Assembly (NCBI GenBank): GCA_047602425.1
Contig: JASGHG010000001.1
Coordinates: forward strand, 3,680,001 to 3,744,000
Origin: Nibricoccus sp.
GTDB lineage: Bacteria > Verrucomicrobiota > Verrucomicrobiia > Opitutales > Opitutaceae
Reading direction: 5' to 3'
Length of the DNA stretch: 64,000 nucleotides
Below the pieces are notes generated by a model. That model was not told the origin of the DNA. It worked only from the letters and a program-made list of their open reading frames with translations, and did no database searches. Positions within the stretch are counted from its first letter, which is position 1. The number at the start of each line of letters is the position of its first letter. A program made the translations under genes and the position numbers. This document shows, piece by piece, positions 12,588 through 29,662 of the stretch.

Positions 12588-14681
12588 ATGAGCCAAAATC
12601 CGGAAAACAGCCCCGCCCCGTCGCTTGACGCCGCGCGCGCCGCCTATACGCAATGGCGGACCGCCGTCGAGGCCGAACTGCAAGGCGCGCCATTTGATAA
12701 GAAGCTGGTGACACGTACTTTCGAAGGCGTGTCGCTTCAGCCCGTTTACACGCGTGCTGACGTGTCCGGACTGGCCAACCTGGCCTCGCAACCCGGTGAA
12801 GCACCATTCCTTCGCGGGTATTCGAGTAGCGGATACACAGCTGGAGCGTGGGAATTTTGTCAGGAAATCGCGGCCGCAAAATCGCTGGATTTTAACTGCG
12901 CATTATTAAAAGACCTTATGCGCGGACAGGACAGTGTCGCGCTTACGCCTGATCGGGCCACGCGTAACGGACAGGATGCTGACGCCGCTGCGGCTGCGGT
13001 GGGCATCGACGGCGTTTCGATTACCGACCTGAACGATCTTACTGCTGCTTTGCACGGTATCGGTCTGCAAGCGCTGCCGGTTCACATCCGTGCTGGTGCA
13101 AATCCGCTGCCAGTCGCTGCACTCTATCTCGCACACGCCGCCAAAACCAAAGTCTCGGCCGAAAAGCTGACGGGCTCGGTCACCGCCGATCCGCTTGGTG
13201 AACTCGCGGAACAGGGCAAACTCCCAGTCGCTTTGAACAGCGCCTACGATTCACTCGCTGCCTGGACGCAGTGGGCGGCGAAAAACGCTCCCGCTCTGGC
13301 CACGGTCGGTGTGAACGGTGCCCTCTGGCTCGAAGCCGGTGGCAATGCCGTGCAGGAACTCGCCTTCGCCATCGCGGCGGGTGCGGAATATTTCCGCGCA
13401 TTCGCTGCCCGCAAGGTCGATGCTGCGACCGCCGCGCCGCGCATGCGCTTCACCTTCGCAGTTGGCCCGCAGTTCTTCCTCGAAGTTTCAAAGTTCCGCG
13501 CGTTCCGCCTCCTCTGGAGCCGCGTCGCGCAGGGCTTCGGTGTCAAACCCGAGCAAGCCAAGGCCCGCATTCACGCCCGAACCAATCGCTGGAATAAAAC
13601 GCAGCTCGATCCGCATGTGAACATGCTCCGCGTCACCACCGAGGCGTTCTCGGCCGTGCTTGGAGGCATCGAAAGCCTGAGCATCGGCACGTTTGACGAG
13701 GTGCTTGGCGGTGGCGACGAGTTTTCTCGCCGCATCGCGCGCAATCTCCACACGCTCCTTTCCGAGGAGTTTCACACGATTGCCCCGGTTGATCCGGCGG
13801 GCGGTTCGTGGGTCGTGGAAAAAGTCACCGACGAACTCGCCCGTAAAGCCTGGGCTCTCTTCCAGGACATCGAGAAACAAGGCGGCCTCGCCGCTGCGCT
13901 TCGCTCAGGTTACGTTCAAAAGCTCGTGGCGACTTCCGCTGCGGAAAAGGACGACGCGATCAGCAAGCGCCGCTCCGGGCTCGTTGGGACGAACCTCTTC
14001 CCAAATCTAAAAGAAAAGCCGCTCTCCAAGCCCGTCTTTGACCAGGCCGCGTTTGCCTCCGCTCGCGCCACTGAGATCAAGGGCCGCCGCGCCGCTGCGC
14101 CGAAAGTTGCTGCGAACGATGTCGACGCGCTGATCAAGGCCGCCGCTGCCGGGGCCACGATCGGCCAGCTCGCTGCGCTCAGCGCCTCCGCTGCTGAAGC
14201 CGCGATTCCCGCGGTGAAAGCCAAGCGTGCTGCGGAAGGTTTCGAAGCCCTTCGCGCCGCCGCCGATGCGTTTGCCAAGAAAAACGGTTCTCGTCCGAAG
14301 GTCTTCCTCGCGAAGATCGGACCGGTCAAACAGCATAAACCCCGCGCTGACTTCACTGCTGGCTTTTTCGCGGTTGGCGGTTTTGAAGCGGTCGGCAAGG
14401 AGGCGTTCGAGACTGCCGAAGCTGCCGCGCAAGCTGCTGCCGCTTCCGGTGCGTCCGTCGCCGTGCTCTGCTCGACTGACGAAACGTATCCGACGCTCGT
14501 GCCCGCCTTCGCCTCTACGCTGAAGGCCGCCAAGCCCGGCATCACCGTTGTACTCGCGGGCCTGCCCGCCGACAAAGCCGTCACCGAGTCCTTCCAGAAG
14601 GCCGGCATCGACGACTTCATCCACATTCGCGCCAACGTCCGCGAACTCCTCGCCAACCTTCTCAAGAAGATCGGAGCCTGA
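12588..14681 (+). CDS. mutA: Methylmalonyl-CoA mutase small (beta) subunit
   Basis: Mutase-like ([23 protein letters not shown]) but lacks the DxHxxG B12 motif; directly upstream of the large subunit. Confidence 0.88.
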
Positions 14682-14686
14682 AACCC

Positions 14687-16822
<2,136 letters not shown>

Positions 16823-18899: not shown

Positions 18900-19340
18900 A
18901 TGCCCAAACCTGCGTCAAAGACCACGCGTGTGATCTTGGTCTGTCTTTGTCTCTTGGGATTGGGTATTGGCTTGTTCTGGTGCGGTCATCGAACGCAGAT
19001 GGCCAAACAAGCTCAGAAAGCGGCTGCCTGGGAAAAGGACGCGGCGCGTCTCGTGATGATCAACGAGGGGACGTGCGAATGGCTTGTCACGATCTGGCCC
19101 GCAGGCGCTGACGACGGCAAACAATGGAAAATGCCCGTCGGACAATCCGCCGAGGCAATGCTAACGGCTGGCACTTATCGGGTGGAGCAGAAGCTTCTGG
19201 CAAACGTGGGCGACGCGCAGATGCGAAAGTTCGCACTGACGCTGGAGGCGGGGCAGGTTTACCGGTGGCGGTTGATTAATTTACTTTCGAGCGACGCGAA
19301 AGAGTGGGCGGTTTCTTTGGACGAGGAGGGCCGGCCATGA
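18900..19340 (+). CDS. Membrane-anchored hypothetical protein
   Basis: N-terminal TM, beta-rich domain; stop overlaps the next start (ATGA). Confidence 0.7.
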   Translation: MPKPASKTTRVILVCLCLLGLGIGLFWCGHRTQMAKQAQKAAAWEKDAARLVMINEGTCEWLVTIWPAGADDGKQWKMPVGQSAEAMLTAGTYRVEQKLLANVGDAQMRKFALTLEAGQVYRWRLINLLSSDAKEWAVSLDEEGRP

Positions 19341-22168
19341 GTGCGGGCGATTCCAAGCGTGCGGTGGCAGAGATTCGTTTTGGCGAAGATCGTGCTGGCG
19401 TGGCCAAGGTTGGCGGTCGGTCGATCCACCAATATTGGAGCATGCTTTCGCCGCATTTTCGCGATGTATTTTTGGCGCCGCAGCGACGTTCCGACGATGG
19501 CGGTGTGTCATGGACCTGGCGCGAGCCGGCGGAAAAACAACCGCTGACTGCGGCCGAATTGGCGGGCGTGCGTAACCGAATGGAACGCGCAAAAGAATCG
19601 TTCGAAGAAAATCCCGTAAGTCCGCTGATGAACGAGGCGCGCGGAGGCGGCGCGAGTTCACAGGAGATCGTCGATCAGCTCATGGTGCGCGTGAAGGCGC
19701 TCGCCGAGGGACTCGTGGGCAAGCCCGATGCGGCTTTGGCGGAGTATGTTTGTCGCACGGAAACCGGGGTGATGGTCCACAGCTGGGGGCTTGATGTGGC
19801 GGCTAAAATTTCCCATCCCGATTCGCAGGAGAGCGCGGTTAGCGGTAAGGTGATGTTCGGCGGAAACGGTTCGGCGGGCAACGACGTTGTGATTGAAAAC
19901 GCGCGAGGTTTGCGGGTGGCGAGAACGACGACGGACGAAAGGGGCGAGTTTAATTTCACCAAACTTGCGCCGGGCCGCTACCGCGTGCGCGTGATTTCGG
20001 GGCCGGGCGAATTTTCAAAGAAAGGGATTCTGGTTACCGTCGAACGAGGCGAAACCTCCCGCATCGAATTGCGCAGCACCTCCGATCCTGTGGCTTCCAC
20101 CGCCGGGGGAACGGAGGAAGCCGCGACCGAAAATGCGGCAGAGACGAATGCGCCGATTGTCGCGACGAAGCGTCGGACTTGGATTTGGGGTGCCGCGCTG
20201 GCGGCGCTGTTTCTCTTTGGCGGTGGTGGATGGATTTGGTTTTCCTATTTTAGATCGGCAAAATCGGACACGCAGACTACCCAGCGTGTTTCGACGCTGA
20301 CGCCGGAAAAGTTTTCCTCCGCAAAATCAGCTCCACCAGCTGAAGCACAGACATACGCGAGGAATCACAGTCCGGGTTCGGGGCTGGGAGCTGTGGTCGA
20401 CGGATCGGGGGACACGAAGCTGCCGACGGTGCGTCGCGAGACCCCCTCAATTGACGTGCCGACCTTGTCATCCAGTGCGGAGTTAGGCATGGGATCGGTT
20501 TCTAAAATAGGTACGCGCGTGGAACTTTCCGGCGTAAGTTCTGCGGATATAAATCCAAAGTCGTCGGGGTCGACGAGTGACTCCCGCGCAATGCCGAGTC
20601 CGACGAGCAGTCCTGACGCTTCATTGGAAAAACGGTCGAATTCAGCCGAACCATCAAGTGGAATGGATACCGATGCTCGCGTCAAAAATTCCACGGCGAC
20701 GAGTGTAGCCACTTCGCGCCCGGAAGCCGAATCACGCCCTCCAGCCGACGGCGCACCCGCCGAAGCATTGTCCGGGCATTTGCCGGTTGGCGCGATGGGT
20801 GCAATGCCGGAATCGCCAGCGGGCAGTGATACAGAAAGGAAGCAGGGCGTAGCGATAAATGCTGGTTTGGCTCCCGAAGATAAAAAGGCAGGCGCAGGCA
20901 AGGGGAGCGGACTTCCCATGGCTGTTCGTGCGGAGAAGAAGACGTCATCGGAAGATGCCGCTGGAGCTTCTTCGAATGGTAGAGCAGCTTCCGTCGGTGC
21001 CGGAGTTCAGCGGATTTCTGGACAGGGCCCGGAGGCGTCTGTTTCGGTGGTCGAAAAGCCTGTCAAAAAATCCCAAACTCCCATCGCAACTGACGTTGGA
21101 AATCCCGCGGGTCGCCCGAGTGATCTTTCCAGCGATCCCTCATCACCCGGAGATTCTGACGAAGTCGATGAAAAGCCGAATAATCGGAAAGAACCAAGGA
21201 CCGCTTCCAAGGCTTCCAAACCGGCTCCAAGTGAAGGGCCAGAAGGTGCCACAACTTCTTCTTCGGTTTCGTCTGCATCGGGGACAGGCACGCCCCGCAT
21301 GAGCGAATCGGCGGAGAGTGAACAACCAGAGACACCTGACACCGCCAATGGGTCTTCCGTGACATCATCGGACGCTGGTGCGCCGGACACTCCTGCCGGT
21401 GATAAAAATTCCAGTTCTACGGCCGGATTGAGCGCGCCTGAAAAGATTGGTGATGCAGCCCGTGGCACAGGCTTGCCTCAGAGCAAGTCGTTACCAGCCG
21501 GCATGCAGATCGTGGGCTCGGTGAAGCTTGGTCGGTGGAGTCTGGGCGTCGGACGCGATGCCATTGTGCCTACGATGCCCTTGCGAGAAGGGGCGACCGA
21601 TCTGGCCGAGGCATTGCGTCGAAAGATGAGTGAAGAACAAAAGGCGCGACTGCCTGCGACATTGAAACATCCAAAATTGTTGAGCGGATTCGCCTTCAAA
21701 TTTGCGAGCGGCGTCAAACCGCGCCCCTTGCGTTGGTCGGCTGGTGGGGAGCCCGGTTTGACTTTCGCAGTGGAAAATAATCGTGCCGAAATGGGATGGC
21801 TCCCATCCGAGCCGCCACGCCAGGCGGTGTTCACGCTGACATCCTCGGACGGTGCAGAGATGGCCCGGGTCGAATTTGACTCCACGGGACGAGCTACGGT
21901 GGCGGTGAAGTCAGAATTGCGGGCAATGTTTTTATTGGGCGTGTGGTATGCCGAGACTGAACGTCCAGTTTCAGGGGGCGCATCTCGTATCGCATGGCAA
22001 GTGGTTAGAGGACCGCTCGCCTCGACAGCTTGGACCTACGACAGTCGCTGGCGGGAAGGCGGTGGCTGCAGGTTGGAAGTTGTGCTCAATGGCGCGAATC
22101 CCGCGAACACGCGTATAGCGCTTGTCGACCAAGCAAGCGGTTGGCAATTGGCGACGGAGCTCGAATAA
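19337..22168 (+). CDS. Large bitopic protein: SrfA-like N-terminus, carboxypeptidase-regulatory-like domain, TM, long S/P/A-rich region
   Basis: TTTDERGEFNFTKLAPGRYRV motif; TM WIWGAALAALFLFGGGGWIWF; ~400-aa low-complexity stretch. Confidence 0.7.
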   Translation: MSAGDSKRAVAEIRFGEDRAGVAKVGGRSIHQYWSMLSPHFRDVFLAPQRRSDDGGVSWTWREPAEKQPLTAAELAGVRNRMERAKESFEENPVSPLMNEARGGGASSQEIVDQLMVRVKALAEGLVGKPDAALAEYVCRTETGVMVHSWGLDVAAKISHPDSQESAVSGKVMFGGNGSAGNDVVIENARGLRVARTTTDERGEFNFTKLAPGRYRVRVISGPGEFSKKGILVTVERGETSRIELRSTSDPVASTAGGTEEAATENAAETNAPIVATKRRTWIWGAALAALFLFGGGGWIWFSYFRSAKSDTQTTQRVSTLTPEKFSSAKSAPPAEAQTYARNHSPGSGLGAVVDGSGDTKLPTVRRETPSIDVPTLSSSAELGMGSVSKIGTRVELSGVSSADINPKSSGSTSDSRAMPSPTSSPDASLEKRSNSAEPSSGMDTDARVKNSTATSVATSRPEAESRPPADGAPAEALSGHLPVGAMGAMPESPAGSDTERKQGVAINAGLAPEDKKAGAGKGSGLPMAVRAEKKTSSEDAAGASSNGRAASVGAGVQRISGQGPEASVSVVEKPVKKSQTPIATDVGNPAGRPSDLSSDPSSPGDSDEVDEKPNNRKEPRTASKASKPAPSEGPEGATTSSSVSSASGTGTPRMSESAESEQPETPDTANGSSVTSSDAGAPDTPAGDKNSSSTAGLSAPEKIGDAARGTGLPQSKSLPAGMQIVGSVKLGRWSLGVGRDAIVPTMPLREGATDLAEALRRKMSEEQKARLPATLKHPKLLSGFAFKFASGVKPRPLRWSAGGEPGLTFAVENNRAEMGWLPSEPPRQAVFTLTSSDGAEMARVEFDSTGRATVAVKSELRAMFLLGVWYAETERPVSGGASRIAWQVVRGPLASTAWTYDSRWREGGGCRLEVVLNGANPANTRIALVDQASGWQLATELE

Positions 22169-22682: not shown

Positions 22683-22756
22683 TGCCCGATGGTGTAATGG
22701 CAGCACCGGAGATTTTGGATCTCCTTGTCATGGTTCGAATCCATGTCGGGCAGCCA
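22683..22756 (+). tRNA. trnQ: tRNA-Gln(TTG)
   Basis: Acceptor TGCCCGA/TCGGGCA, anticodon stem GGAGA/TCTCC with TTG, T-arm CATGG-TTCGAAT-CCATG, encoded CCA. Confidence 0.95.
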
Positions 22757-24002
22757 GCTTGGGGAGGCCAAAAACAGTGTTATCCCCCTCTGATATAGCC
22801 TTTTGTGCCAGTTCTACCAACTGAGTCAAAACAGCCCTAAAAGGCCCTTGCGCACAACTAGACACACAATCTGTGCGTGCAGCTGTGTGTACTTCAGGAG
22901 CCAGCACCCACGGCAACTTTGCCACCTCGGCATGCAATCCGAGTGCGGCAACATCCGTGTAAACATTAGCCGTCAACGACGGGTCCGAGTGACCGAGCAT
23001 TTCCTGTGCGGCACGCTGACCGACACCCGACTGAGCGCCCCACGTCTGAAAAGTTTTTCGAAATGCATGAAAATGTAACACGCGACCAGACGCGTCACGC
23101 CGCTCAATACCAGCCCTCGCCATATCCGCCTGCAACGCGTCGTCAGATGGAAACCGAGCAAACACACCTAGATCACGCCGCCACCTCGTCACCTCAGCCT
23201 CACAACACAACAACTTTGCCAACTCCGGATGCAACGGCACAGTCCGCTTGTCCTTGTCCTTCGTCGTGCTTGCCCGGAACACGACGCACGGAGCATCCCC
23301 AAGGTTAACATCATCCCATAGCAACGCACGCGCCTCATTCGTACGAGCTCCAGTGTATGCAAGAAACAAATACACAAGCCGACGATAGGCAGGAGCCACC
23401 TCACAGAGTTTCGCCAACTCCGCTTGAGTGAACGCACGCGACACCCGAACCGCCTTCCCTCGAGTATCCACCATATCTACACCCCTGAGAGGATTGACCG
23501 CCAAACGCCCAAGCCGAACCAGCCAATTGAAGAAAGCATTCACCGACACCTGAAATTCTTTCTTCGTTTTTGCCGCACACGTAAGCTTTGCCCGCCACGC
23601 CACAAACGAAGTAGGGGAGACATCCGCAAGACGCGCCCACCCCGTCTCCCCAATGACCCGCTCGATGCGCCGCACACTCTCGACCACATGCGCAGCAGCA
23701 AGACCCCGCCCGTTCAAATCCGCCTTGTATTCAGAAACCAATGACACCAGCGACGCCGCAGCAGCAAAACGAATTGCCTCAGGTTGCACGATGCCTTCCG
23801 CCTCACATTGCTTCGCCGTCACCAAATCACGAAGACGCTTTTCTGCTACCTTTTTGTTCGACGTGTACAGCGACACCGTCACCGGTCGGTCACCAGCTTG
23901 CAGCGCGTACCGCCCAGAATACGACCGCGACAAGATACGCCTACCGGCCTTTCTACGACTCTGTTTGAAGACATACTGAATCACGCACTCATATGAATGC
24001 AA
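22728..24002 (-). CDS. Tyrosine recombinase/integrase whose 3' end crosses attL
   Basis: TGAR, TTKDK, HAFR, LGHS and VYT catalytic motifs; the last codons (LAARHGFEP*) read antisense through the tRNA; true start may be GTG 23984. Confidence 0.92.
   Translation of the reverse strand: MHSYECVIQYVFKQSRRKAGRRILSRSYSGRYALQAGDRPVTVSLYTSNKKVAEKRLRDLVTAKQCEAEGIVQPEAIRFAAAASLVSLVSEYKADLNGRGLAAAHVVESVRRIERVIGETGWARLADVSPTSFVAWRAKLTCAAKTKKEFQVSVNAFFNWLVRLGRLAVNPLRGVDMVDTRGKAVRVSRAFTQAELAKLCEVAPAYRRLVYLFLAYTGARTNEARALLWDDVNLGDAPCVVFRASTTKDKDKRTVPLHPELAKLLCCEAEVTRWRRDLGVFARFPSDDALQADMARAGIERRDASGRVLHFHAFRKTFQTWGAQSGVGQRAAQEMLGHSDPSLTANVYTDVAALGLHAEVAKLPWVLAPEVHTAARTDCVSSCAQGPFRAVLTQLVELAQKAISEGDNTVFGLPKLAARHGFEP
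22732..22757 (+). repeat. attL core
   Basis: GGTTCGAATCCATGTCGGGCAGCCAG, identical to 29637-29662. Confidence 0.95.
22851..22869 (+). repeat. Left putative integrase arm site (inverted relative to 29555-29573)
   Basis: CGCACAACTAGACACACAA; exact reverse complement at 29555-29573. Confidence 0.7.
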
Positions 24003-24045
24003 AAGAACTCACAAAAGCAAGTAGATTTTTGTAACATCATAAAGT

Positions 24046-24270
24046 ATGAAATCTCGCGTGCGTTCTAAGCCGCAAATAGCCGCCTCTTTACCCAAGCACA
24101 TCGCGGAAGAAATTCAGCGTTTCAGCACTGCACTTGATATCACAAAAGGTGAATACCTAGCGCTAATCGCTCGCAAATGGTATGCCGACAACTGTCCCCC
24201 GGTTAGCGATGAAGAAAAAAGACTCAGGGAAACAGCCGACCACCCAAAGCAGGTAAAAAAGCCAGCTTAA
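24046..24270 (+). CDS. Small DNA-binding protein, putative ribbon-helix-helix repressor
   Basis: 74 aa, basic N-terminus, strand-helix-helix pattern (QIAASLP...EEIQRF...ITKGEYLALIARKW); divergent from the integrase. Confidence 0.6.
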   Translation: MKSRVRSKPQIAASLPKHIAEEIQRFSTALDITKGEYLALIARKWYADNCPPVSDEEKRLRETADHPKQVKKPA

Positions 24271-24304
24271 CACCCGGATGCTGGCAACGCCCCAAGCAAA
24301 CACC

Positions 24305-24802
24305 ATGCGCCATCTGCTCTCACTGCTCCTATTTGCAGCAGTATCACTGACGGCCAGCGCCCGACTTGGAGAAAATGAGCAAGAGCTTATAAAACGATTC
24401 GGGCAACCTCTGTCACAGACACCGGAAAAGTTTTTCGCGCAAGGAAAATTCATAACCATCGGTACCGCTCTAACATTTCAACAAGAATCATGGCGAATAA
24501 CAGCCGTTTTAACAGAAAACCGTTGCTCGAAAATCACCTACACCCACCCCGGAGACTGGACCGAAAATCAATTCACAACGACTCTCACAGCAAATTGCCA
24601 AGCATCGAAATGGACCGACACGTCAAGCACTGACCAAGGATTCCGAAAACTATCGCGCAATTGGAAACGCGCTGACGGAGGAACCGCCTCGTGGACAATG
24701 GCAGGGACCAGTTTGGTAATCACAAACCCAGCCTACAACAGAACCAAAGAAAAAGCTGAAGCAAAAGCCAAAGCCGAGACCTCACGCATACCCAAAATCT
24801 AG
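24305..24802 (+). CDS. Secreted accessory protein of the prophage
   Basis: Signal peptide MRHLLSLLLFAAVSLTASA; co-oriented with the repressor. Confidence 0.7.
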   Translation: MRHLLSLLLFAAVSLTASARLGENEQELIKRFGQPLSQTPEKFFAQGKFITIGTALTFQQESWRITAVLTENRCSKITYTHPGDWTENQFTTTLTANCQASKWTDTSSTDQGFRKLSRNWKRADGGTASWTMAGTSLVITNPAYNRTKEKAEAKAKAETSRIPKI

Positions 24803-24806
24803 CAAC

Positions 24807-26132
24807 CTAACGCATAGAACTCGTTAGCGTTTCGGTGGTCTTCAGACGAGCAACGCCATCTACCACCGACCACGACCCCTCGTCCCGAGGCTTGTCGATC
24901 GCTTCGATTCTAGACATTTCCGTTCGCACAGGCATCTCCACACGTTCCGGATCCTTCGCTCGCTCCAAATAGACCCTCGTGCCGTCTACAACGGTCCCGG
25001 CTGCGTCTACACGCTGCAATTCCTTATCTCTATCCGTAACCGTACGACCGTCACTTAAAACAACCTGTACACGCCCCGCACGGATCAAATAACCACGAAC
25101 CAAAACCGGCTGGGGAAGGGGACGATTCGCAATATCCGAGGGCAAAGCGCTCGACGCAGCCGGCGTGTTGTTTGGTTTCAACTGCGCCAACTGGACCGAC
25201 GGCAGTCCCGTCACACTGTCCATTTGGACAGCGGGTCGGGCTGTCGGGTCTGTACCATTGCCAAGAGTAGGGGATGCCGTTGCGCTCGACGGCGCGCTCT
25301 TCTGAATTTGCTTGCCCAATAGCTTACCGCCAATCCATGGCGCAAACCAGGTCAAGGCACAAAGCAAAACCGCACCCGGTAAAACCAGAATAATCGGTAT
25401 GCCCGAGGCCCGCTTCCCTTTGTCCGCTTGCGATCCATGCACGCCAATCCCCTTCGCAGTGTCGTAACAAGACGCCGCGCCTTGCGTATCCAAATGATAG
25501 ATACGTTTTATAAATGGCTCAGAATTACGCGACGGCTCTTCGTTGTAATAACGCGCAACGAACCGACCACGACCTCTAAACATGCCAAACCGAGCTTGGT
25601 ACTCGTTACGGGAAATAATAAAATCCTCCGCCACAGATCGAAACTGTTTATCCAAATTCGAAGCCGCTTGCGTGATACACCACACGCGGTCGCTCAGCTT
25701 GCGATGTTGCGCCAGATAGATCAATGCCTCTGGACCAATTTCCGCCCACTTACGCGCGTTAAATTTCAACTGCGCTTCATCAATAACGTAAAAGACGCCT
25801 TGCGGGCAACCCTCAACACCCTCCATCACCTTTTCCGCTTCGACATCATCTAGTTTCTCAAGCGTTGAAAACTTTGGCACCGGCAAACGTTTCGGTCCAC
25901 GAACCAACCAAAACGACTGCACCTCATCACTACGGATCAGACAAACACGTTCAACCGTACGGAAATTTCGGCCGGGATACTTTTGTTGGAGGTATTCGTT
26001 AAGCCGTCCAACATCTAAAGGAAGGTTCGTAACGATGTTTCGATAGCCCTCCACGAGTTCCTTGATGATCTCCAAAAGAGCCAGGTACGACTTACCGCCA
26101 CCCGGTTTGCCCATGCCGATGTGAATACTCAT
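24807..26132 (-). CDS. zot: Zot/pI-like morphogenesis ATPase
   Basis: N-terminal Walker A GKPGGGKS, IVTNLP, Walker B YVIDEAQ, QHRK, ITQ, one TM, periplasmic tail. Confidence 0.92.
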   Translation of the reverse strand: MSIHIGMGKPGGGKSYLALLEIIKELVEGYRNIVTNLPLDVGRLNEYLQQKYPGRNFRTVERVCLIRSDEVQSFWLVRGPKRLPVPKFSTLEKLDDVEAEKVMEGVEGCPQGVFYVIDEAQLKFNARKWAEIGPEALIYLAQHRKLSDRVWCITQAASNLDKQFRSVAEDFIISRNEYQARFGMFRGRGRFVARYYNEEPSRNSEPFIKRIYHLDTQGAASCYDTAKGIGVHGSQADKGKRASGIPIILVLPGAVLLCALTWFAPWIGGKLLGKQIQKSAPSSATASPTLGNGTDPTARPAVQMDSVTGLPSVQLAQLKPNNTPAASSALPSDIANRPLPQPVLVRGYLIRAGRVQVVLSDGRTVTDRDKELQRVDAAGTVVDGTRVYLERAKDPERVEMPVRTEMSRIEAIDKPRDEGSWSVVDGVARLKTTETLTSSMR

Positions 26133-26135
26133 CGT

Positions 26136-26270
26136 TCACTCCTCCAACTTGTCAAAACGCTTTGCCCTCCTGATTGCCCAAACGTCGGCAATCAAAAACC
26201 CGAAAAGCGTACTAACCGAACCAACAAGCATCCAAAAAACAATACCCCAAATAGAATCAGCAATTATCAT
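26136..26270 (-). CDS. 44-aa single-TM putative minor virion protein (not in the ORF track)
   Basis: Hand translation MIIADSIWGIVFWMLVGSVSTLFGFLIADVWAIRRAKRFDKLEE; its end supplies the GGAGGA SD for zot. Confidence 0.65.
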   Translation of the reverse strand: MIIADSIWGIVFWMLVGSVSTLFGFLIADVWAIRRAKRFDKLEE

Positions 26271-26274
26271 AAAT

Positions 26275-26421
26275 TTATCTTTCGATGTTATCCGAACCAA
26301 CACGACGCACCCAACGAAGCCCTGTACGAGTCAAACGCACCAACGCTCCAAACATCATACCAAGGGCAAAAACTTTCGCCTCATCGGTAAGCGCCCATTC
26401 AGGAAGATTCTCAAAGTTCAT
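26275..26421 (-). CDS. 48-aa putative minor virion protein
   Basis: MNFENLPEWALTDEAKVFALGMMFGALVRLTRTGLRWVRRVGSDNIER; ATGA overlap with the upstream stop. Confidence 0.65.
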   Translation of the reverse strand: MNFENLPEWALTDEAKVFALGMMFGALVRLTRTGLRWVRRVGSDNIER

Positions 26422-27752
26422 GGCACAATAAACCGAATTGTAGCAGCCGCAGCCGCGAAGATTGACGAAGCATAGAGATTCCATCCAAAGCGCGCCACGA
26501 GGGTCAACACAATCGTCGCAACCGGAAAAAGCTTATCCAACATATACAAGGCCCCCGCAGCCATTCCCGTAGTTGGATTCGTGCCCGCCGCCGCTATGAT
26601 CGCAGACAAACTAATATCTCCGGTCAACCAAGACAACAAAGCCAAAGTAAATGTAGTCACCGCCACCGTTATTGCCGAAGCAGCAACCAACGCCGTCGCT
26701 TGCGCGCCCGTACCACTGACTATCGGATTCCCCTTCGCTTGCGGCAAAACACTGATCCCTTGCGTCCAGTCCTTAACCTGCGCTGACGCCCAAATGCCAA
26801 AAACAATTATACACGCCCAAGCAGTGGCCGACCGGAACCATTCACAAATCCCAGCGAAACGTTCATTCTTAAACGGATCAGCATCGACCGTAGCCCCGCC
26901 CATGTTTGCCGGAAAAACTATCGCGAAGTTCGGCGCACCACCGCCAACAGTCGGCTTCACGGGCTGACTAACAGAAGGATAATGAGCCCTAGCCACCGAT
27001 GCCGCCGCAGCCCCTTTTCCCTCCATTTGACTAGTACCCTCTTCACCTTTCTTCTGCGCAGCCTGTACAGCTTCCCACAACGAGTCGCCACCTGTACCCG
27101 TACCCGAAGAACCAGACGACCCCGAAGAGCTTGACGACGAACTCCCACCCGAACTTGACGAAGACGAAGATGACGACGAACCGCCTTCACCTCCCCCTGA
27201 ACTTCCGCTTGAAGACGAGGATGACGACGACGATGAAGAAGACGATGACGACGACGAGGAAGAGGACGAAGAACTAGACGAAGACGAACTGCCTTCAGGC
27301 GATAGATAATCAGTATAATTGACCGAAACCCGCTCAGTAGGATTTAAGTTACTATACGTAAACGCATTAATCCGTAACTCCGCACCTACCTGGTATTCGC
27401 TATCAAACAATATATCGTAATATCCGCTGGCTTGCTGCTCATACACTAAAGCGACCTCAAGACCATTCGCTTTCTTTATATATATCGAATAATACTGTCC
27501 CGGCCAACCCGGGGTACCCGAGTTTGTGCTCACCGCTGTAAATAACCGAGCCCCAGCCCCATTATTCGTCAACTCTGTGTGAGTCGTAACCGTAAATGTA
27601 ATATCCCTAATTTCATAGCCAGAACCATTCCAATAGTTAAACGGCACGACATACGAACCGCCACCACCAAAGACCTTCAAACATCCAAAGGCGACAAAAT
27701 AAAAGAAGACAACCAACAACCTGCTACAAAAATTAGGAATAGCATATTTCAT
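26418..27752 (-). CDS. pIII-like adsorption protein with a poly-Ser/Gly linker
   Basis: Signal peptide, Tyr-rich beta domain, long Ser/Gly linker, hydrophobic C-terminus; lies between the coat gene and zot. Confidence 0.8.
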   Translation of the reverse strand: MKYAIPNFCSRLLVVFFYFVAFGCLKVFGGGGSYVVPFNYWNGSGYEIRDITFTVTTHTELTNNGAGARLFTAVSTNSGTPGWPGQYYSIYIKKANGLEVALVYEQQASGYYDILFDSEYQVGAELRINAFTYSNLNPTERVSVNYTDYLSPEGSSSSSSSSSSSSSSSSSSSSSSSSSSSSGSSGGGEGGSSSSSSSSSSGGSSSSSSSGSSGSSGTGTGGDSLWEAVQAAQKKGEEGTSQMEGKGAAAASVARAHYPSVSQPVKPTVGGGAPNFAIVFPANMGGATVDADPFKNERFAGICEWFRSATAWACIIVFGIWASAQVKDWTQGISVLPQAKGNPIVSGTGAQATALVAASAITVAVTTFTLALLSWLTGDISLSAIIAAAGTNPTTGMAAGALYMLDKLFPVATIVLTLVARFGWNLYASSIFAAAAATIRFIVP

Positions 27753-27759
27753 GGGATTT

Positions 27760-27793
27760 AAAGGTTTAAAGCCGGGGTTTGCAGTCCCCCGGC
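27760..27793 (-). terminator. Hairpin/terminator after the major coat gene
   Basis: GCCGGGG/CCCCGGC stem (27771-27793) followed on the minus strand by TTTAAACCTTT. Confidence 0.6.
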
Positions 27794-27802
27794 ATAGCAT
27801 CG

Positions 27803-27919
27803 TTAGATGCGCTTGAGCCACTTGCGACCGAGGAAAAACCCGGTCACAGAGACGGCCAGAACAACGATAACGCCAAACAGCGTTGTTGCGGATGCAACCA
27901 TTGCAGTAATCTCAGTCAT
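27803..27919 (-). CDS. Major coat protein (pVIII-like), 38 aa (not in the ORF track)
   Basis: MTEITAMVASATTLFGVIVVLAVSVTGFFLGRKWLKRI: amphipathic N-terminus, TM core, basic C-terminus; upstream of the pIII-like gene. Confidence 0.8.
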   Translation of the reverse strand: MTEITAMVASATTLFGVIVVLAVSVTGFFLGRKWLKRI

Positions 27920-27936
27920 GTTTATGTTTCCCGGTT

Positions 27937-28065
27937 TTATTTTGTTATTTTTCGCCGCCACAACCAGACGCGGAAACTAATTCCGGCAGCGAATAGCACC
28001 CATAGTGGCCAACAGGTCAGCAAAAACTGCCGAACCATTTGCGATACTATAGACGCAAAAATCAT
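27937..28065 (-). CDS. 42-aa hydrophobic protein (pVII/pIX-like position)
   Basis: MIFASIVSQMVRQFLLTCWPLWVLFAAGISFRVWLWRRKITK. Confidence 0.55.
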   Translation of the reverse strand: MIFASIVSQMVRQFLLTCWPLWVLFAAGISFRVWLWRRKITK

Positions 28066-28067
28066 AC

Positions 28068-28304
28068 TCAGGTCAGAACCAACTCCCCCTGACCCTCCAA
28101 GAGCATCAAAGCCCCGTTTAAACGCGATATCTCCCCAGTAAGCGCAGTGATAGCCTGCTTTTCCGTAGACTCCCAAATTTCGGCATTTAAACAACTGCTA
28201 GGGGTAAGCAGCAGACGCTCACAACGCATCGTCTTTGCTTTTTCGAGATCAGCGATACGACGACGAATAGCACCAATTTTATTAGCTCTCTGGAATCGAT
28301 TCAT
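28068..28304 (-). CDS. 78-aa helical-hairpin hypothetical protein
   Basis: MNRFQRANKIGAIRRRIADLEK...ITALTGEISRLNGALMLLEGQGELVLT; heptad pattern. Confidence 0.55.
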   Translation of the reverse strand: MNRFQRANKIGAIRRRIADLEKAKTMRCERLLLTPSSCLNAEIWESTEKQAITALTGEISRLNGALMLLEGQGELVLT

Positions 28305-28334
28305 AACGACAGTTAGTTTTGTTTTGAACAAGGA

Positions 28335-28381
28335 AAGGCCGCGCATGCCGTCCGCTAGCGCGTCCGGCATGCGCGGGCCTT
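28335..28381. other. Strong GC-rich stem-loop directly after the SSB gene
   Basis: 12-bp perfect stem CCGCGCATGCCG (28339-28350) / CGGCATGCGCGG (28365-28376); loop contains the palindrome CGCTAGCG. Confidence 0.7.
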
Positions 28382-28686
28382 TATTTCTTCGATACTTCTG
28401 GACGCTCCAATTTGACATCGAGAGACAGAAGGCCGTTTGCCTTGAATCCCGGAACGACTTGCGCGACGACATCTTCGCCAGAGCGAAAGAGCAGGGGCAT
28501 TTCACCCTTTGCTTGATCGACTGACTGAGTGAGGTTGACGAAGGTCTCACCAGCGAGAACCTTGCCACGAACCATTTGATAGGCGCGACCCTTTGCAGAG
28601 ACGCCACCGATCATTTCGAAATCGCCAACCGCTTTACCGATCAGGAAGACGCCGGTTGGAAGTCCGGCAGGTAGTTTGATAGCCAT
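28381..28686 (-). CDS. pV-like single-stranded DNA-binding protein
   Basis: 101 aa, beta-rich; GGVSAKGRAYQM resembles the Ff pV DNA-binding hairpin; directly downstream of rep. Confidence 0.7.
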   Translation of the reverse strand: MAIKLPAGLPTGVFLIGKAVGDFEMIGGVSAKGRAYQMVRGKVLAGETFVNLTQSVDQAKGEMPLLFRSGEDVVAQVVPGFKANGLLSLDVKLERPEVSKK

Positions 28687-29498
28687 GTTTGTACTTTCGT
28701 TTCTATTTTATTGCGGTCGATTTTGAGGACATCCGCCCCGAGACCGTGCCGGAGCAGAAGTTGTGAAAACTCCACAAGTAACGCACCCCACGAATCCTGA
28801 CGGATTACAAAGAGCTGATGACGTTTTGAGCCGTCATCCAAAGTGGTCCGACCGACGACAAGCTTTGACCATTTCTGAATTCTCTCCCCGATTGTATCGG
28901 ATTTCCCGATACGTTCGTTTTGTGTGTCGCTGGACAGGTCATCACCAGCTTGGCGGGGGGACGCCTTTTCTTCTTTCTTTAGCTCATCGCCGGTCGAAGA
29001 GGGGAAGAATCCCATTGAGGTCTGAAAGAGCCTCATCTGGCTGCGATTGAGAACCCAATCGGGCAGATTTTCCGCAGCCTTGGAAACGTACTTAAAAAGG
29101 TAATCAAAGCGGGCATCTGTCACACCCTTGATTTCTGTCCGTCCCTTCGCCCACCGGTTGTGAATGTCTTCAGCTTCGATAGGACGCTTGTAGTCAACTA
29201 ACAGATGCCAGTGAGGCCACACCTTGCCGTTTTCATCCGGCTCATGGAACTCCAGTTTCCAACACCAACGCTTGATGCTGTAATCCTCGCGCAACCGGTC
29301 GATAAAATGCCGCATAGACCGTTTTCCGGCTTCATATGCAGCCTCTGGATCAGGAAACCGCTCACGGTCTAGCGTGAGGGTTATAAAACGCCAATTGCGC
29401 AGATTGTCCGGAAAACCACGGCGCACTAGCTGGCGAATCTTCGCTAGCGCCCCCAACTCCGTCCAAAAGCCCGGAACAACGTATGGAGAAATCGTCAT
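28641..29498 (-). CDS. HUH-superfamily rolling-circle replication initiator
   Basis: Motif I FITLT, motif II PHWHLLV, motif III YLFKYVSK; SD GGAGGG 6 nt before the ATG. Confidence 0.88.
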   Translation of the reverse strand: MTISPYVVPGFWTELGALAKIRQLVRRGFPDNLRNWRFITLTLDRERFPDPEAAYEAGKRSMRHFIDRLREDYSIKRWCWKLEFHEPDENGKVWPHWHLLVDYKRPIEAEDIHNRWAKGRTEIKGVTDARFDYLFKYVSKAAENLPDWVLNRSQMRLFQTSMGFFPSSTGDELKKEEKASPRQAGDDLSSDTQNERIGKSDTIGERIQKWSKLVVGRTTLDDGSKRHQLFVIRQDSWGALLVEFSQLLLRHGLGADVLKIDRNKIETKVQTWLSNYLPDFQPASS

Positions 29499-29554
29499 TT
29501 AACGCCCTCCACATCCGTCAAAGTTCGCCAAACAACCGCCAAAACTAAACGCGT

Positions 29555-29573
29555 TTGTGTGTCTAGTTGTGCG
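29555..29573 (-). repeat. Right putative integrase arm site
   Basis: TTGTGTGTCTAGTTGTGCG, the reverse complement of 22851-22869. Confidence 0.7.
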
Positions 29574-29636
29574 TAATACTCACCAGCCCAATCCTTAAGG
29601 CATGACTCGAAATCCTTTACCACCCCACTGAAACAA

Positions 29637-29662
29637 GGTTCGAATCCATGTCGGGCAGCCAG
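29637..29662 (+). repeat. attR core (duplicated tRNA-Gln 3' end)
   Basis: 26/26 identical to 22732-22757. Confidence 0.95.

Follow-up and report, generated by a model that had tools for sequence, protein, structure and literature searches.

The DNA analysed here, a window of 64,000 nt from Nibricoccus sp. (Opitutaceae, Verrucomicrobiota; GCA_047602425.1, JASGHG010000001.1:3,680,001-3,744,000), holds a small prophage lodged in a tRNA-Gln gene. An exact 26-bp repeat (22732-22757 = 29637-29662), present in just two copies in the whole 5.16-Mb genome, bounds a 6,905-bp element; joining the ends computationally yields a circle of that length. Judged by its sequence, the element is an inovirus-like prophage, because it encodes a pI/Zot-family ATPase, a 38-aa coat-like protein, a pIII-like protein and small membrane open reading frames (ORFs). 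It also encodes a rolling-circle Rep (PF23343), and its size falls within the 5-15 kb range used as an inovirus criterion. Filamentous virions with circular single-stranded DNA define the inoviruses as a class; this element is known from its genes alone. The features that matter most are these:

22683..22756, plus strand: host tRNA-Gln(TTG), called by ARAGORN, the sole tRNA in the window; its 3' part is restored by the phage copy
22732..22757, no strand: tRNA-side attachment (att) core of 26 bp, spanning T arm to CCA+1; on the antisense strand it supplies the last codons of short Int
22728..23984, minus strand: tyrosine integrase gene (int), prophage form, 418 aa from GTG 23984 (424 from TTG 24002); PF00589, 2e-20
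22848..22869, no strand: candidate arm-type site pair inside int, an inverted copy of 29555-29576 (22-nt inverted repeat, 95%)
23985..24045, no strand: AT-rich spacer between int and a divergent repressor-like gene, presumed control region; GC 0.32 in the 60 nt upstream of int
28310..28381, minus strand: candidate rolling-circle origin, a GC-rich hairpin (z -7.3) followed by a conserved motif
28381..28686, minus strand: ssb-like ORF, 101 aa, named from position and size only; no Pfam or PHROG match
28641..29498, minus strand: HUH rolling-circle Rep, 285 aa; PF23343, 1.9e-12; its start overlaps the long-Int stop
29495..29636, minus strand: stranded 46-codon C-terminal tail of Int, carrying the rep ribosome-binding site and the second candidate arm-site pair
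29555..29576, no strand: that candidate arm-type site pair, inverted-repeat partner of 22848-22869
29637..29662, no strand: second att core, exact 26-bp copy

In the prophage, int reads antisense into the tRNA and stops at tRNA-derived bases (22730-22728). The catalytic motifs lie at Int residues 212-343 and the att core at residues 410-418, so that the phage attachment site, attP, is inside int. When the ends are joined, the int frame gains 46 codons, and its stop (29497-29495) and the rep ATG at 29498 share a 4-nt overlap; past the junction, the two remaining frames close after 20 and 42 nt. The core within int, the stop taken from host tRNA sequence and the 46-aa extension reaching the rep start had all been proposed in an earlier note on this DNA, and all three hold. 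The note had also proposed two Int isoforms that both keep the catalytic residues. That part stands; its lengths of 424 and 470 aa do not. Residue 7 of the 424-aa frame is a nearly invariant Met among 52 aligned sequences, and the database copy is 418 aa long. Since the first residue of homologs corresponds to GTG 23984, that codon is probably the Int start, and lengths of 418 and 464 aa are more likely for the isoforms.

Integration leaves the last 46 codons of int, the rep ribosome-binding site and rep itself at the far end of the prophage, with no element gene upstream. On the circle, the genes from int through zot form the single co-directional run that had been claimed. Extending one transcription unit to the morphogenesis genes, as the earlier note did, is unsupported: the strong hairpin and a 76-bp gap separate ssb from the structural genes. 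Taken alone, this junction is weak evidence, because shuffling the tail leaves the frame open in about 5% of trials. Family data put the openness beyond chance.

The int-rep junction among relatives

We assembled 136 sequences (set 1: the window and homologous loci), of which 112 have an int C-terminal match with a stop and 103 an intact frame. In 98 of these 103, Int runs antisense into a tRNA or transfer-messenger RNA (tmRNA) gene (83 by ARAGORN, 15 by a tRNA-like peptide); in five it does neither. Both att ends could be placed for 35 junctions. Five were removed (three duplicates, a 17-bp repeat without a tRNA and a frameshifted int), leaving 30 distinct elements including the window. We scored a junction as coupled when the int-frame stop overlaps the ATG or GTG start (-4 or -1) of an ORF of at least 40 aa. 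Coupling occurs in the int frame in 23 of 30 elements (22 of 29 without the window) and in none of the 60 other frames; as background, 883 of 5,484 stop triplets (16%) in set 1 elements have such an overlap. Stops in the tails of related elements had been named beforehand as evidence against a switch; in the 30 elements the joined int frame instead remains open, reaching a start codon in those 23. A summed probability of openness was left aside because tail length is itself set by the stop.

Coupled tails range from 95 to 454 nt, and all ten elements bearing a pI gene are coupled. The seven uncoupled elements comprise four without a recognised rep, one with a -19-nt overlap, one with a frameshifted rep and one with a distant, weak rep. 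Where unrelated small genes stand between tail and rep, a chain of -4 overlaps is kept as far as rep in five loci (L024, L025, L056, L069 and L100). The chain has a 1-nt gap at its second step in L023 and is gapped in L110, and no rep was recognised in L031 and L075.

A held-out set came from a search of the phylum, which found the integrase in 39 of 401 genomes. From 34 regions we obtained 20 junction rows and removed four (two non-tRNA repeats inside tandem integrases, a duplicate of L013 and a broken element). Strict coupling is found in the int frame in 11 of 16 and in the other frames in 1 of 32. Among the 14 carriers of a Rep by Pfam, several of them below the curated cut-off and one Rep_trans-like, ten are strictly coupled, three have overlaps of -8 or -17 and one is uncoupled. 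The held-out integrases are 29-44% identical to Int of the window, and coupling spans 11 tRNA or tmRNA targets. The named homologs and loci come from Opitutaceae and other Verrucomicrobiota. In a FastTree tree, unrooted in principle, a single subclade contains the ten pI-bearing elements together with non-viral ones. A viral contig collection gave no loci with integrase queries or with rep alone; a rep alignment query recovered three pI-bearing contigs, which have no integrase match. Annotated phages gave no rep match and distant integrases only.

Several relatives deserve separate mention. A 2,276-bp remnant at tRNA-Gln in the same genus (L022:8869-11173, = L014) carries a deletion that fuses rep in frame to int (674 aa); it retains the att ends, the tail and the -4 overlap. 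At L069:130-570 the tail has 147 residues with Cys-X-X-Cys repeats and a weak match to a DnaJ zinc finger; by this sequence, tails can gain extra domains while frame and overlap persist. The coupled chain at L207:8414-10086 reaches a Rep_trans-like protein (weak Pfam match) and not an HUH Rep, so the int-rep junction may outlive a swap of the replication module. Tandem elements occupy a tRNA-Asn gene at L184 (G047:C1:3027000-3046999); their integrases read the tRNA in different frames, and therefore neither reads into the tail of the other. Six non-viral relatives (L013, L015, L083, L100, L117 and L133) carry defence-type cargo (TIR, Zeta, AbiEii, HipA, nSTAND3, OLD-like ATPase), and in several non-viral relatives an HTH_17 xis-like gene overlaps the int start by 4 nt. 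The cargo-bearing ones may be plasmid-like elements or inovirus satellites.

Integrase tails, remaining genes and host locus

Does the joined frame exist as protein? In a list of 120 Int homologs, 91 end at most 16 residues from the tRNA peptide, 21 continue and 8 are unclassified. Twenty of the 120 carry tails that are not tRNA-derived (17 from Logan, 3 from JGI); the twenty-first is a read-through along tRNA-Tyr. One long form lies within a genome contig (L181), where at 13374-16314 an integrase with a tail of a second class stands directly before a second, divergent integrase ending in tRNA-Met. The closest homolog, P0002, is 71% identical and comes from a 7,297-bp contig; over 32 aa its tail shares 50% identity with the window tail. 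A model of P0002 begins with three strands and a helix and resembles lambda Int (E 1e-8), which suggests a lambda-like three-domain build; in our element, repeats lie on both arms. The inverted-repeat copies in the 3' region of int and in the tail are placed like arm-type sites and are candidates for that role. Many relatives have a motif resembling the 29555-29576 pair, some 70-82 nt away from the T loop.

A profile built from nine other tails ranks the window tail first among 94,984 six-frame genome segments (E 0.013). The second tail class has an invariant Leu and Trp, with the invariant Leu positions using 4-5 codons, and is predicted to form a helix pair; a fold search gave generic helical matches only (best Z 5.4). 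Its profile has 2,798 representative matches, the best 150 of which are all short ORFs. Sequence comparison thus argues that the tail is under protein-level selection.

Within Rep, HxH and YxxxK-type motifs are invariant among 17 aligned proteins. The motif 3' of the hairpin is present in all 12 aligned elements, viral and non-viral, and hairpin and motif after the ssb-like gene are likely the origin. We had considered an origin inside the tail and dropped it when this conserved origin-like motif was found after ssb instead. The other genes of the element are as follows:

24046..24270, plus strand: ribbon-helix-helix (RHH; CopG-like) protein, 74 aa, candidate repressor; Atlas feature score 0.95 to an RHH cluster, no Pfam match
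24278..24802, plus strand: 174-aa protein with an N-terminal hydrophobic stretch
24807..26132, minus strand: pI-like morphogenesis ATPase (Zot family), 441 aa; PF05707, 4.6e-12; phrog_197, phrog_1675 (6e-9)
26136..26303, minus strand: small membrane protein, 44-55 aa
26275..26484, minus strand: 69-aa ORF, possible minor virion protein, a role taken from position alone
26418..27752, minus strand: pIII-like adsorption protein, 444 aa, with a signal-like start, Ser/Gly linker and C-terminal hydrophobic segments
27803..27919, minus strand: candidate major coat protein, 38 aa, with an acidic start, transmembrane segment and basic end; homologs in pI-bearing relatives
27937..28065, minus strand: 42-aa hydrophobic ORF, possible minor coat protein
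28068..28304, minus strand: 78-aa ORF

The pI-like ATPase has one transmembrane segment (residues 245-263). The coat and pIII-like candidates fit in size, hydropathy and order, with no family match above threshold in Pfam or PHROG. No xis-like gene precedes int in this element.

Just upstream of the tRNA, a 954-aa low-complexity host protein with a carboxypeptidase-regulatory-like domain is encoded at 19304-22168 on the plus strand. Elsewhere the host genome has two similar arrays of 16 and 22 tRNA genes (G000:C1:2388522-2391778 and 2425174-2431080). In the window (22758-22830) and its relatives, a terminator-like hairpin follows the tRNA on the element side in 4 of 29 cases and on the host side in 12 of 29. 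Element-side terminators being rare, read-through from the host tRNA could run antisense into int in the prophage.

A probable switch built by excision

Elements that both integrate and replicate as rolling circles must never do both together, and this family appears to hard-wire the rule in a gene junction. We favour, with reasonable though incomplete confidence, the view that this temperate filamentous phage rewires its own replication module by recombination, excision building an int-rep-ssb unit that ends at the origin hairpin. The layout is probably a recombination-gated replication switch. By the sequence, integration into tRNA-Gln cuts int after the catalytic domain and a spacer helix and leaves a tRNA-derived stop, and excision restores one frame whose stop overlaps the rep start. 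A circle transcript starting in or upstream of int would then cross attP, and ribosomes ending long Int would restart on rep by translational coupling. The Rep and SSB so made would work at the origin hairpin that follows. Integration would cut rep off from this supply of transcript and ribosomes, which we propose prevents rolling-circle nicking inside the chromosome. More tentatively, the tail may be a helical extension that tunes Int, the long form favouring integration by analogy with phage Mx8. The coat and assembly genes need not belong to the unit.

A bolder version, which we regard as doubtful, holds that no Rep is made except by ribosomes coming from complete translation of the attP-spanning Int. 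One recombination would then cut the ribosome supply and at the same time remove a directionality domain from Int; the Xis-less inoviruses of the clade would need just one recombinase gene and a repressor for lysogeny; and the module would be phylum-wide, in inoviruses and non-viral rolling-circle elements alike.

A number of observations weigh against the switch. The 20 long forms are known from protein only, and for each a circle, a tandem and a mis-join are indistinguishable. No homology was found between the two tail classes, which could not be aligned (hhalign probability 0.4). Conservation of the tail is partly at the DNA level, at the arm sites, where Ala codons are nearly all GCA. Relatives in the coupling counts are non-independent, for which reason we claim no p-value. 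With a promoter matrix of low power, trained on 46 host tRNA upstream regions, the spacer between the repressor-like gene and int yielded no convincing promoter (its best score, 6.1, is at chance level), and 3 of 24 tails (L035, L056 and L072) have an above-chance match. The rep ribosome-binding site is no more occluded in 22 elements than in controls (0.39 vs 0.39; hairpin z -1.0 in this element), and therefore coupling may be helpful and not obligatory. Finally, the hairpin and gap after ssb make the structural genes possibly independent.

Could transcription alone do the gating? In the style of SNJ2 and Tn916, an outward-facing promoter inside int would drive the tail and rep on the circle, and long Int and the overlap would be secondary. 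We consider this unlikely. It draws on SNJ2, where transcription begins within int, 419 nt ahead of the int stop; on a -35-like site at 22829, whose score of 11.1 ranks third on the element's gene strand; and on the ribosome-binding site that rep itself carries. The matrix, however, detects no conserved promoter-like site in the tails, upstream of int, at its 3' end or inside it, and across 61 int genes no such site recurs at a fixed position (best column 9 of 42-45, mean 1.8%). Internal ATGs at the tRNA end are without a ribosome-binding site in 27 of 28 cases. On this count we rejected a separate attP-spanning peptide from an internal start, and ribosomes that set out from the start of int best account for the strict stop-start overlap.

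Protein-level conservation of the tails would suit an Mx8-like switch of Int isoforms alone, with rep under a promoter in the tail or P arm that answers to a repressor or activator, and with the overlap as compact packing. Pf4 rep does have its own Xis-activated promoter, a few tails here contain promoter matches, and overlaps are common in small genomes. Yet the window tail has no promoter match (4.3, p ~0.6), tails go down to 95 nt, and the -4 chain re-forms where unrelated genes have been inserted and tends to vanish where rep is lost; we judge this account quite improbable. Least credible by far is an inherited layout without a switch role, the tail being a P arm read through since an ancestral int happened to span attP: arm sites at fixed distances and tails of varying length and sequence would fit it, but the open frame and overlap persist over 11 targets and down to 29% integrase identity, and invariant tail residues are codon-degenerate.

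If recombination does gate replication here, the element offers a compact, testable system for an integrase tail that sets direction, in a phylum whose phages are little studied. Small hypothetical ORFs beside tRNA fragments, the 2,798 profile matches, are explained as stranded integrase tails. The family also offers integrases for at least 11 tRNA or tmRNA targets in Verrucomicrobiota.

Comparison with known systems

ICEBs1 supplies a rationale for gating rep in the integrated state, as its rolling-circle replication from that state kills the host (PMC9956884). ICEKp1 switches int promoters with integration state (PMC13023037). Integration of Tn916 separates replication genes from their promoter, and they are expressed through the joined ends (PMC11658703, PMC9956884); unlike our element, Tn916 is conjugative, has att outside int and is controlled by promoter, terminator and antiterminator.

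Among inoviruses, Pf4 and Pf5 have their own tyrosine integrase, a tRNA target and a divergent repressor (PMC7379572, PMC7549136), as does our element, with a candidate repressor. In Pf4/Pf5, rep lies upstream of int with an Xis-activated promoter of its own, and attP inside int is not described in the excerpts consulted. The inovirus XacF1 has attP inside a regulator gene, ORF12, which integration splits (PMC5666396); it differs from our element in using host XerC/D at dif, and the split gene is not an integrase and is not tied to rep. In the parts consulted, an inovirus survey (PMC6813254) and PMC12715192 contain nothing on the present layout. In a literature search that was thin in subscription papers, neither an inovirus nor a Verrucomicrobiota family turned up in which int spans attP and is coupled to rep. 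To that extent the layout is new for an inovirus; the switch logic is not, being already known from SNJ2 and Tn916.

The suicidal integrases of the SSV1 type have att inside int, and integration splits int(N) from the catalytic int(C) (PMC8371274); here, all catalytic motifs remain in the prophage form. Closer is the Myxococcus phage Mx8, with attP inside int (PMC6070905, PMC4383910). In both, attP lies toward the 3' end of a tyrosine integrase gene, the target is a tRNA, and the C-terminus is swapped while the active site stays complete. Mx8 is a tailed double-stranded DNA phage, and the literature consulted on it does not mention an int stop coupled to a replication gene. No Myxococcus record is among 72 tblastn matches, in a collection whose inclusion of Mx8 was unchecked.

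Closest in logic is the haloarchaeal pleolipovirus SNJ2, where experiments show that replication is gated by excision, which assembles an int-attP-rep operon with a hairpin origin at its end (PMC13107129). SNJ2 too is a small tRNA-integrating virus with int and rep at opposite ends, joined by coding sequence across attP. In SNJ2, int is whole, the attP-spanning ORF26 is a separate gene, transcription starts inside int and the replication protein is Rep-Arvir (Rep_trans fold). In our bacterial inovirus, in contrast, int is cut, the attP-spanning frame is the tail of Int itself, and its stop overlaps an HUH rep. The layout fuses two devices known separately, the tail swap of Mx8 and the excision-built operon of SNJ2 and Tn916, in a clade of bacterial inoviruses; it is this combination that is new.

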